From IMG/VR virus record IMGVR_UViG_3300003178_000005: a stretch of 64,000 nt of DNA; one strand, written 5' to 3'. Every line of letters starts with the position of its first letter. Position 1 is the first letter of the stretch. Below, piece by piece: positions 2,453-3,582 of the stretch. Source of the DNA: an uncultured virus (IMG/VR IMGVR_UViG_3300003178_000005). Its lineage: Duplodnaviria > Heunggongvirae > Uroviricota > Caudoviricetes. The translations under genes were made by a program, and so were the position numbers. The notes under the pieces were generated by a model. That model saw nothing but the letters and a program-made list of their open reading frames with translations, did not search any database and was not told where the DNA came from.

Positions 2453-2492
2453 TACGGGCGGGTAGCTCAGTTGGTTAGAGCCCTCGGCTCAT

Positions 2493-3220
2493 ACATCTTT
2501 ACATTCGGATGTTTTTATGGCATAATGCATTAAAACATAAGGATTAAAGAATGAAGCATAGTTACAGAAGATTGAATGGTTACGTCCTAACCTATGAGCC
2601 GTCTAGCAAGTATTGCATGACATCAGAAAATTGGGATGGATGGGTATATGAACATATACTCGTCATGGAAAGAAGGCTTGGTGAAATACCTGACGGATTT
2701 GAAGTGCATCATCTTGATGGTGACACTGAAAACAATAGGGACGACAACCTAATACTTCTTTCAAAGGAAGACCATACAAGACTTCATAACTGGCTTCAGT
2801 CGTGTGACATCAACTTGAAAGAGTTGAATGCAAATCGGATGAATTCAGGGAAACCTAAACTATTCAGGTGTAAAGAGTGCGATAAGCCATTGTCTGGAAG
2901 CCAGACAACATTTTGTTGTACTGCATGCCAAAATAGGTTTAGCTCAAAGAAACCTCCTGTAGACGAGCTTATAGGTAAAACTATAAGCGAAATCTCAAGC
3001 AAGTTTTCAGTAACTCCGAAGACTGCAAGAAAATGGTTTCATTCATACGGAATAGCATGGCAATCCTGAGCGAAGCCAATGACGAACTTCATTGGAACGT
3101 GCAGAGACTACACGGTGCAAGAAGCGTCTTGCGTAATACGTGATTAGCGTCCGACACCTAAGTGCTACATGCATATGGTGATGATATAGTCCACGGAGTA
3201 GTGAAAGCTACACAAACGTG
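2493..3220 (+). mobile_element. Group I self-splicing intron (728 nt) encoding an HNH endonuclease
   Basis: 5' exon ends in U, intron ends in G; P3 TCGGATG 2835-2841/CGTCCGA 3148-3154; P4 TTCAGG/CCTGAG; P7 GAGACTA 3104-3110/TAGTCC 3187-3192; P9 GTAGT-GAAA-GCTAC. Confidence 0.92.
2551..3069 (+). CDS. Intron-encoded HNH homing endonuclease with zinc finger and HTH-like tail
   Basis: YEHILVMERRLG..EVHHLDGDTENNRDDNL..H; CKEC..FCCTAC; AAGGA SD; TGGCATAAT -10-like box upstream. Confidence 0.9.
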   Translation: MKHSYRRLNGYVLTYEPSSKYCMTSENWDGWVYEHILVMERRLGEIPDGFEVHHLDGDTENNRDDNLILLSKEDHTRLHNWLQSCDINLKELNANRMNSGKPKLFRCKECDKPLSGSQTTFCCTACQNRFSSKKPPVDELIGKTISEISSKFSVTPKTARKWFHSYGIAWQS

Positions 3221-3271
3221 AACCGAGTTGTCGCAGGTTCGAGCCCTGCTCCGCCCACCATTTAATCTTCA

Positions 3272-3378
3272 GATTTCCGCAGGATGCGGCTAATCGTCAA
3301 CGCCAAAAACAAAAAGTGTTAAAACTTCCTTCCAAAGAAACAAACATTTTTCGACATTGGCCGCATCCTGGGGAAATC
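3272..3378 (+). ncRNA. Long rod-like hairpin RNA candidate
   Basis: 15-bp helix 3280-3294/3356-3370, flanked by 3272-3278/3372-3378, with an inner AAAAAGTGTT/AACATTTTT stem. Confidence 0.5.
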
Positions 3379-3379
3379 C

Positions 3380-3582
3380 CTGGAGGAAAGACCAGCAGTT
3401 GAGTTCTACGAGGATTGACGAATACGAACCTTCTTGTCCCTTATTTAAGGAACGAGAACCAGTACTATTGCGCTTTGAGAGTAGATACAGACAGGAGCGT
3501 CAGCCCCCTCCTAAAGCCAAATATATGGTAGGTTCCGTTACCTATCCGGCAGAAATAAACGGATAAAGAAGCAGCTCAGGCA
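3380..3582 (+). ncRNA. Candidate multibranch ncRNA with pseudoknot
   Basis: GAGG..TTGACG/CGTCAG..CCTC stem; TTCTTGT/ACGAGAA hairpin; GGTAGG/CCTATC hairpin whose loop TCCGTT can pair with downstream AACGGA. Confidence 0.45.

Follow-up and report, generated by a model that had tools for sequence, protein, structure and literature searches.

A probable mobile group I intron in a phage tRNA(CAU) gene, with an HNH endonuclease frame threaded through the ribozyme core

Introduction

Positions 2456–3260 of a 64,000-nucleotide (nt) stretch from an uncultured virus of the Caudoviricetes (IMG/VR record IMGVR_UViG_3300003178_000005; the whole stretch is called the window here) raise the question of how one piece of DNA can be a transfer RNA (tRNA) gene, a ribozyme and a protein gene at once. 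A tRNA gene with the anticodon CAU is split there by a group I intron, and an open reading frame (ORF) for an HNH endonuclease runs through the ribozyme core. A 2014 review places all phage group I introns then known in protein-coding genes, despite the many tRNAs of phages (PMC3984707). An intron at this tRNA position is known from Azoarcus, whose pre-tRNA-Ile(CAU) intron is of subgroup IC3 and class 'Ile2.5Ug' (Williams 2020, bioRxiv 10.1101/2020.01.27.920355). We examined the exons, the ribozyme and the endonuclease of the window together with their relatives. Our reading, to which we give a probability of about 0.8, is that the locus is a mobile, Azoarcus-like IC3 intron of the bacterial tRNA(CAU) class, lodged in a phage tRNA gene that is probably tRNA-Ile2 and threaded by a modular HNH ORF.

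Results

A tRNA gene split directly after the anticodon

With introns allowed, ARAGORN reads 2456–3260 as one split tRNA with a 728-nt intron; the standard run, without the intron option, does not call the gene. The 5′ half (2456–2492) provides the acceptor strand GGGCGGG, the D arm, the anticodon-stem strand CTCGG and the loop CT-CAT, and the 3′ half (3221–3260) provides AA, CCGAG, the T arm, TCCGCCC, A and CCA. Joined, the exons form a complete cloverleaf, and their ligation would give a 77-nt tRNA with an encoded CCA.

ARAGORN places the split two bases to the left, and joining C2490 to U3219 in this way would produce a CTG anticodon and hence tRNA-Gln(CUG). This join is the program's default choice, but it requires a C at position −1, and the base ahead of the alternative 3′ site varies among relatives, where omega-G followed by AA is constant. 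The covarying pairing of UCAU^AC (the caret marks the splice site) with the internal guide and the intron-less relatives, which read CTCATAAC, also run contrary to it, and we give tRNA-Gln(CUG) practically no chance. Three lines of evidence put the exon ends at U2492 and A3221 and make the anticodon CAU: the group I rule that requires U ahead of the 5′ site and G ahead of the 3′ site, the base pairing between UCAU^AC and the guide, and the relatives. The G1-C72 pair excludes a bacterial initiator tRNA. The gene is probably tRNA-Ile2 reading AUA, which would fit the six other tRNAs of the window (anticodons UUC, UGG, UAA, UAG, UGA and UGU), all of which read A-ending codons; elongator tRNA-Met is the alternative.

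A protein search returned 11 relatives besides the window's own product, and the DNA of several was recovered by scans of metagenome and viral contigs. The threaded loci (L002, L003, L008 with its duplicate L007, L006, L009, L011, L022, L056 and L031) encode proteins 36–67% identical to that of the window. They split a tRNA ending ...CTCAT at the same point, with introns of 705–768 nt where both ends are present (L006 and L009 are cut at the 3′ end). All six viral contigs that hold the 23-nt 5′ exon stretch of L003 and of its near-duplicate L004 carry the tRNA uninterrupted, as CTCAT^AACGGG. These contigs thus confirm the junction and reveal a presence/absence polymorphism at the site.

Covariation of the ribozyme helices

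A cmsearch scan with the group I intron model, as advised by a first-pass annotation made from the sequence alone, matched Rfam RF00028 to 2778–3213 with 70.5 bits against a cutoff of 50 (E value 7e-16). The match spans model positions 1–253, which is the whole model, and is the only one within the 64 kb. In the window, every proposed ribozyme pair is standard (Table 1). P8 holds the sequence CCUAAG...UAUGG, which we take to be the 11-nt receptor motif.

We scored the ribozyme helices and the four tRNA stems on a MAFFT alignment of nine sequences, of which two are near-duplicates (L056 of L011 and L004 of L003), so that cell counts overstate independence. On this alignment 92.1% of 772 cells are paired, against 34.6–44.4% when the partners are slid by 1–3 columns. 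Changes on both sides were found in 53 of the 92 pairs, and none of 500 shuffles reached any of the observed measures. P3 is 96.8% paired, and P4 and P7 are 100% paired; P4, P5, P6 and P7 are nearly invariant across rows, and P5a closes the L5 insert in all lineages. In P6a, in the hairpin between P7 and P3′ and in P8, the variable inner parts align poorly between two clades, at 67–83% paired.

The splice-site pair U2492·G2804 is U·G in nine of nine rows. Beside it in the long-range P1, four rows have A-U at +1 and the other five C-G; at +2 the rows show C-G, U-A, A-U or G-U, except for a mismatch in L011 and L056, whose helix a one-base bulge would extend. Judged by this covariation, the pairing of the distant guide with the splice site across about 300 nt is real.

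The first-pass annotation had put the intron at 2493–3220, directly 3′ of CAU, with a guide at 2802–2807 that pairs with UCAU^AC through a U·G wobble, a P2 with a GAAA loop, and a TGA at 3067–3069 in the 3′ strand of P4. The split tRNA call, P1, omega-G and the relatives agree on the intron; the P1 pairs are standard and covary at +1 and +2; the six P2 pairs (2811–2816 with 2821–2826) all covary; and the stop is read directly from the sequence. The elements it named are present at, or a few bases from, the coordinates it gave.

Two further elements were considered and set aside. CUUCAUAAC (2782–2790) pairs with the guide in the first hairpin of the Rfam alignment, as an internal exon mimic might; it is not conserved, and its CAU is a His codon that reads CAC in L002 and L006. 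TCGGATG occurs at 2506–2512 and again as the P3 strand at 2835–2841, as would a relic or alternative P3, and the repeat is absent from L008 and other members of one clade of relatives (clade B, below).

An endonuclease encoded in two loops and the core between them

The ORF begins at ATG 2551, behind AAGGA at 2539–2543. HNH_3 (PF13392) matches residues 33–77 (E 2e-14; 53.2 bits against a curated cutoff of 24.8). Because phrog_15471, an HNH endonuclease family, covers residues 10–168 (E 5e-24), the full length of the ORF corresponds to one known protein architecture. Residues H53, H54, N62, N66 and H75, as well as the four Cys of the zinc finger, are invariant in 14 aligned sequences. A search of PDB sequences with the family profile gave no match, and Foldseek found nothing at E ≤0.001.

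An AlphaFold model built on an 11-sequence alignment has a mean predicted local distance difference test score (pLDDT) of 81.8. Residues 11–80 are modelled confidently (blocks of 89–95, with the HNH domain above 90), scores fall to 74, 54 and 68 for residues 81–90, 91–100 and 101–110, with residues 100–103 below 50, and confidence returns in the Cys-rich part and in helices 137–165. The protein is, by homology, a modular HNH homing endonuclease composed of a catalytic domain, a linker, and a zinc finger with helices; DNA binding and cleavage are putative activities.

The ORF starts in L1, passes the guide, P2, P3, P4 and P5, crosses the 184-nt insert and ends in P4′. Residues 84–105 are encoded by the 5′ strands of P1, P2, P3, P4, P5 and P5a, and model confidence is low there; the ribozyme-encoded stretch is therefore the linker between the domains. 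The HNH domain had been assigned to L1 from the outset, in keeping with an ORF start at 2551, HNH_3 at residues 33–77 and a guide downstream at 2802. A single ORF threading the guide, P2, P3 and P4/P5 to a stop in P4′ had also been proposed, and this layout can be read from the sequence and is common to the relatives. The roughly 55 nt that had been thought to serve as both ribozyme and protein become 64 nt (2802–2865) plus 20 nt (3050–3069) of overlap between the paired core and the ORF. As for the zinc finger and helix-turn-helix (HTH)-like tail placed in a P5 expansion of roughly 200 nt, the insert, the four invariant Cys and helices 137–165 are compatible with it; the insert measures 184 nt, and the HTH_23 match is sub-threshold.

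The overlap is constrained by RNA and the flanking modules by protein

We compared mean pairwise identity at codon positions 1, 2 and 3 over seven lineages, leaving out the near-duplicates L056 and L004. The HNH part, taken as two segments, gives 0.58, 0.65–0.78 and 0.37–0.40, and the L5-encoded part gives 0.46–0.51, 0.54–0.64 and 0.36–0.37, the low identity at third positions showing selection on the protein. Over the overlap the values are 0.62, 0.71 and 0.73 for 2802–2859 and 0.65, 0.79 and 0.75 for 3050–3069; here the third position is as conserved as the others, a sequence pattern showing selection on the RNA. The amino acids encoded by P2 vary freely (N/G/S/T, L/T/A/G and E/K/V/A/D/L) and pairing is retained, and the peptide N-R/G-M/V-N-S-G-K-P-K, encoded from P3 to P5, is nearly fixed because the RNA is nearly fixed. 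In the overlap, as these comparisons indicate, the sequence is set by the RNA and tolerated by the protein.

The frame is open through the core in all eight lineages that carry the L5 insert. In the window, L002, L003, L008 and L006 the stop is a UGA in P4′. In L011, L056, L031 and L009 the ORF is in another frame here and continues for about 70 nt through P4′, P6 and the P7 5′ strand (AILSQA...EGAET...), stopping in the hairpin that follows that strand. Such RNA-fixed extreme C-terminal tails look like run-on, and the L5 insert has been lost from L004; both would suit the view that the real protein is confined to the HNH part in L1, the frame beyond it, in the core and L5, being a run-on that is under no selection. 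The L5-encoded part can nevertheless be aligned to free-standing homologues over their zinc finger and helices (query residues 8–168), and its third codon position (0.36–0.37) is less conserved than its second (0.54–0.64). With four Cys invariant in 14 sequences and a core open in eight lineages of eight, we find an unselected run-on very unlikely.

The same comparisons bear on whether the intron is a dead relic and the tRNA a pseudogene, the gene having merely been disrupted by an HNH gene. The window offers a precedent in a neighbouring tRNA-like gene (122–165, 786–832) that is apparently disrupted by another HNH gene without a ribozyme. At 2456–3260, however, the core helices are all intact and covary across lineages of only 36–42% protein identity, U·G and omega-G are present in all rows, the exons make a complete cloverleaf, and third-position conservation in the overlap speaks for ongoing selection on the RNA. 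A dead relic is thus highly improbable, slightly more so even than a run-on.

Relatives of the ribozyme and of the threaded layout

L004 is near-identical to L003 except that about 205 nt are missing at L5, leaving an ORF of 117 codons. Its full ribozyme match scores 88.4 bits, the best of all, and by this natural deletion the L5 insert is dispensable for the ribozyme fold. Among 60 viral loci with the same 18-nt P4–P5 motif, 55 have P4′ 32–39 nt downstream and no long ORF across the motif, and four (L011, L022, L056 and L031) carry the threaded HNH ORF. In the remaining locus, L066, a long frame runs into the motif from about 980 nt upstream.

The P4′–P6 motif GGCAAUCCUGAGCSAAGC was found at at least 120 genome loci. 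From this genome scan we picked 22 bacterial tRNA(CAU) introns as ARAGORN 'Gln ctg' or 'Met cat' calls. All share the exon CTCAT, a guide GGTG 6–12 nt after the splice site, the P7–P3′ hairpin and the P4′–P6 motif; those examined are 297–380 nt long including exons and have no ORF.

Other searches gave little. One weak relative came from a protein search of viral contigs with a single protein, no viral contig matched the exact 35-nt P7′–P9 stretch, and no hit of blastn against 50,697 phage records covered 80% of the locus. The phage records gave only short core matches, to a cyanophage psbA intron and to a Vibrio phage stretch between fragments of a terminase coding sequence (CDS). In that phage, vB_VpaM_R16F (L010, record 81060–86126), the terminase large subunit is annotated as five CDS fragments, and an unannotated 67 nt between two of them is 82% identical to the P7–P3′ region of the intron, which suggests that the gene holds unannotated group I introns.

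Introns in tRNA genes of bacterial and archaeal-labelled metagenome-assembled genomes (L096, L127, L119, L143, L088 and L112) have other HNH ORFs in L1; ARAGORN assigns their hosts to Asn(GUU), and to Leu(UAA) for L112. The ORF reaches or enters the P4–P5 motif in L096 and L143, passes P4′ in L112 and L119, and stops upstream in L088. An L1 ORF that often reads on into the core is recurrent across tRNA introns.

Free-standing homologues and phylogeny

Full-length homologues lie inside the tRNA gene clusters of phiKZ (gp296), BRkr (RVBP21_2480) and PBC2 (gp251), and no group I intron was detectable at these loci at E 0.01. In tblastn these free-standing forms cover query residues 8–168 at 29–34% identity, and in the protein alignment they lack about 10–14 residues exactly at NLKEL..NRMNSG, the stretch that P2–P4 encode in the intron-borne forms. 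L005 (2001–2581) encodes a 161-residue homologue, 49% identical, placed 20 nt upstream of an intact tRNA(CAU) and without an intron. Its protein ends in ...IMWKK, where intron-borne forms end in ...I(A/T/V)WQS, encoded by P5′/P4′; this ending may point to an intron-borne ancestor.

We built a maximum-likelihood tree of 20 rows, none dropped, with a midpoint root only. Clade A (support 100/99) unites the window, L002, L003, P0002 and P0003 with L005, P0004, P0007 and P0008, and clade B, with weaker support (80/81), holds L008, L011, L031, L006, L009 and P0009. The forks between the free-standing phage genes and clade B are not resolved in this tree, and midpoint rooting does not settle the order of the intron-borne and free-standing states. 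From the tree with both clades, the threaded layout is common to the two, and L005 looks like a secondary escape.

A predicted leader hairpin and a promoter-like site

Folding of 2483–2575 predicts a hairpin (z-score −2.78; 4 of 200 shuffles as good). In this hairpin the end of the exon, with the anticodon (GCUCAU), pairs with AUGA-AGC at the start codon, and UCUUUAC-AUUC pairs with GGAU-UAAAGA in the Shine-Dalgarno region. The leader region folds with z −4.33 in L002, −4.19 in L011, −2.47 in L008, −2.44 in L009 and −2.34 in L031, and a predicted hairpin covers the ribosome-binding site or the start codon in L002, L003, L009 and L011.

The same leader holds a promoter-like site in the window (Table 1). 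At the same place L002 has TTTATA-17-TATAAT, and both have an extended TG. Partial motifs were seen by eye in L008 (TTGACA-17-TAGAAA) and L011 (TGCTATAAT). Both the window and L002 carry the promoter-like elements within the 5′ arm and apex of the hairpin, and a transcript starting at about 2533 would therefore lack the occluding arm. In L006 (390–400) the leader is only 2 nt long and the nuclease AUG comes 3 nt behind the 5′ splice site, which leaves no space for a promoter; the excised intron of L006 would be a nearly leaderless mRNA.

Neighbouring features

The tRNA-like halves at 122–165 and 786–832 are about 620 nt apart and have an acceptor stem with 6 of 7 pairs, D and T arms, and CCA. 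Between them (201–716, 699–777) lie a second HNH_3 ORF of 171 residues (E 4e-10) and a complete tRNA-Pro(UGG). ARAGORN makes no split-gene call there, and no group I intron is detectable; this tRNA looks as though an HNH-plus-tRNA cassette had disrupted it in the anticodon loop. Directly after the CCA of the split tRNA, 3261–3400 folds into a hairpin with a stem of about 30 bp (−49.2 kcal/mol, z −6.2, 0 of 200 shuffles as stable). A tRNA-like remnant with the T arm GCAGGTTCAAACCCTGC lies at 1385–1455, between tRNA-Leu(UAG) and tRNA-Ser, and has no ARAGORN or Rfam call. Between tRNA genes at 885–1180, a GC-richer segment of about 300 nt has no long ORF, folds with z −2.3 and has no Rfam match at E ≤1.

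Table 1. Predicted features of the split tRNA(CAU) locus, in window coordinates
Feature	Position	Strand	Basis
tRNA(CAU) 5′ exon: acceptor, D arm, 5′ anticodon stem, loop CU-CAU	2456–2492	+	ARAGORN -i; stems 100% paired across relatives
Predicted leader hairpin: exon end/intron start against Shine-Dalgarno AAGGA 2539–2543 and AUG 2551–2553	2487–2557	+	z −2.78
P1 5′ strand, U33-C-A-U36^A+1 C+2; U2492·G2804 wobble at splice site	2489–2494	+	2 pairs with compensatory change
Group I intron, 728 nt, IC3-like tRNA(CAU) class	2493–3220	+	Rfam RF00028 70.5 bits; covariation
L1 loop, 307 nt: leader and HNH catalytic domain	2495–2801	+	ORF and domain calls
Promoter-like site TTTACA-17-CATAAT, upstream TG	2498–2526	+	sigma-70 scan, 10/12 matches
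HNH homing-endonuclease ORF, 172 aa and TGA stop	2551–3069	+	ORF call, Pfam, PHROG, model, alignment
Internal guide GUGUGA, P1 3′ strand; ORF codons S84-C85-D86	2802–2807	+	alignment
P2 hairpin 2811–2816/2821–2826, GAAA tetraloop; codons 87–92	2811–2826	+	6/6 pairs covary, 100% paired
P3 5′ strand, partner 3148–3154	2835–2841	+	4/7 pairs covary
P4 5′ strand 2845–2850, J4/5 AAA, P5/receptor-like CCUAA 2854–2858	2845–2858	+	Rfam, alignment
P5, inside CCUAAA...CAUGG receptor-like motif	2854–2855/3059–3060	+	sequence, Rfam alignment
P5a 5′ strand, partner 3050–3055	2860–2865	+	6/6 pairs covary
L5 insert, 184 nt: zinc finger C107, C110, C122, C126 and helical ORF tail	2866–3049	+	model, alignment, relatives
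P5a′, P5′, J5/4, P4′ (3064–3069); stop UGA 3067–3069	3050–3069	+	sequence, alignment
P6/P6a	3070–3100	+	alignment
P7 5′ strand, partner 3187–3192, A3105 bulged	3104–3110	+	100% paired, one U-A to C-G change
Extra hairpin P7–P3′	3111–3142	+	found in 22/22 bacterial tRNA(CAU) introns examined
P3 3′ strand	3148–3154	+	alignment
P8 with CCUAAG...UAUGG	3155–3180	+	sequence, alignment
P7 3′ strand within J8/7–P7 (GAUAUAGUCC)	3187–3192	+	Rfam, alignment
P9 hairpin, GAAA loop	3198–3211	+	4/5 pairs covary
Omega-G, last intron nucleotide	3220	+	G then AA in 8/8 relatives reaching 3′ end
tRNA 3′ exon: AA of anticodon loop, 3′ anticodon stem, T arm, acceptor, encoded CCA	3221–3260	+	sequence, ARAGORN, alignment

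Discussion

A model for splicing, expression and mobility

We propose the following mechanism for the mobile tRNA(CAU) intron. The pre-tRNA transcript would fold into the ribozyme, the guide at 2802–2807 reaching back about 300 nt to UCAU^AC. Guanosine would attack after U2492, and omega-G3220 would then direct exon ligation. A ribosome on the ORF would unwind the core, and translation on the precursor would for this reason be held off by the leader hairpin. Translation and splicing would on this inference be mutually exclusive, and the hairpin over the Shine-Dalgarno sequence and AUG, predicted in most relatives, lends the idea indirect support. In the phage of the window and in L002, a promoter inside the hairpin probably gives rise to a shorter mRNA that cannot splice and whose ribosome-binding site is free. 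Homing would presumably follow when the enzyme cuts the intron-less tRNA(CAU) gene of a co-infecting phage and repair copies the intron in.

Several observations weigh against this reading. At 307 nt, L1 is unusually long for P1 formation, and the receptor-like motif of P5 is non-canonical, with CAUGG instead of UAUGG. The predicted leader hairpin also holds the 5′ splice site and could hinder P1 formation, and in L003 it is not significant (z −0.95). The ORF tail matches HTH_23 with only E 0.023, below the Pfam cutoff, zinc-ribbon families are likewise sub-threshold, and Foldseek ranks I-HmuI first with a weak match (E 0.04, probability 0.96). No viral contig contained the 23-nt exon stretch of the window itself, and no intron-less copy of that exon was found. 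The region shows no excess of promoter-like sites over shuffles (5 in 2.6 kb, expectation 4.7), and the strict sigma-70 motif occurs in the leader of only two of eight lineages, the window and L002.

The last two points bear on how the nuclease is made. An internal promoter, which the first-pass annotation had put at about 2518–2526, can be upheld as a motif in the window (2498–2526) and L002; its absence from the other six lineages and its shuffle-like frequency tell against the proposal. Alternatively, the long pre-tRNA transcript or the excised intron RNA might serve as the message for the nuclease, with splicing first. The rarity of the motif would suit this route, as would L006, whose 2-nt leader puts the AUG almost at the 5′ end of the excised intron. 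It fits less well with −35 and −10 elements at the same place inside the hairpin in both the window and L002, each with an extended TG, with the partial motifs in L008 and L011, or with the inner helix that would still cover the Shine-Dalgarno sequence in the excised intron. We regard expression without an internal promoter as a serious possibility that is clearly short of even odds.

Comparison with known systems

The Azoarcus intron has the same insertion after nucleotide 36 of the CAU anticodon, the same U(−1) and omega-G, the same GAAA loops on P2 and P9, and the same receptor-type motifs in P8 and P5. It differs in its bacterial host, an L1 of a few nt and the lack of an ORF, where the phage locus has a 307-nt L1, a 184-nt P5 insert and a threaded HNH ORF.

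The tRNA-fMet intron of Synechocystis PCC 6803, 655 nt long, encodes I-Ssp6803I of 150 residues (Bonocora and Shub 2001, via PMC1995217). It too is a bacterial-type tRNA group I intron of similar size with a homing endonuclease aimed at the anticodon region; the enzyme is PD-(D/E)XK rather than HNH, and the intron occupies the fMet.2Ug position of another tRNA in a cellular host. I-TevI of the T4 td intron is modular, with a catalytic domain, a linker, a zinc finger and an HTH (PMC3943268), a phage endonuclease architecture like that found here; it is a GIY-YIG enzyme encoded within a single peripheral loop, in a protein-coding host gene. The free-standing phrog_15471 genes (phiKZ gp296, BRkr and PBC2 gp251) share both the architecture of the window's enzyme and its site in tRNA clusters, and differ in having no surrounding intron and a linker about 10–14 residues shorter; T4 SegB is a functional analogue of these genes (PMC2330249).

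The leader control envisaged for the window would resemble that of I-TevI. Work by Gott in 1988 and by Gibb and Edgell in 2010 is said to have found that a hairpin at the ribosome-binding site holds back I-TevI translation on the precursor, and that an intron-internal promoter makes the mRNA.

Overlap of an ORF with a ribozyme core was already known (PMC3984707). In core creep, it arises when a shift of the start or stop codon adds non-homologous residues to an ORF in a single loop (Edgell, Chalamcharla and Belfort 2011, PMC3073962). As in that account, coding here extends over core helices, and the C-terminal tails vary, ending either in P4′ or some 70 nt beyond it, in a manner that suits drift of the stop codon. 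Unlike in that account, there are two homologous modules in two loops and the core encodes their linker; only the last residues of the ORF fit core creep, and the main overlap does not. Core creep was rejected as the sole origin, given the homology of the L5 part with the zinc finger and helices found in free-standing relatives.

We suggest tentatively, at not far below an even chance, that ribozyme and nuclease are one interlocked gene that arose otherwise than by the accepted route, in which an ORF enters a single peripheral loop and core creep follows. The 5′ half of the core, from the guide to P5a, would instead be an insertion of about 10–14 residues in the linker of an HNH endonuclease specific to tRNA clusters. 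The layout would be old, as two clades that are only about 36–42% identical share it, and reversible, as in L005, a free-standing copy that falls within an intron-borne clade and in which the ribozyme-encoded linker is deleted. The anticodon CAU would pair in cis with the nuclease AUG, so that folding of the precursor would gate translation.

Significance

A literature search that covered few subscription journals found no description of a group I intron in a phage tRNA gene, or of an HNH-bearing one in a phage tRNA(CAU), and none of a nuclease with its parts in L1 and L5, joined by a linker that the core encodes. On the evidence of this locus and its relatives, mobile group I introns do occur in the tRNA genes of phages. 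The relation of ORF to ribozyme goes beyond what core creep predicts, with two modules in two loops and a core that doubles as the linker.

The locus would offer a natural system for studying how one sequence serves an RNA fold and a protein together, how translation and splicing are kept apart on a non-coding host RNA, and how a homing endonuclease moves between free-standing and intron-borne states, both of them in phage tRNA clusters. These clusters are of current interest as counter-defence loci, and selfish nucleases that shuffle them may shape that arms race.

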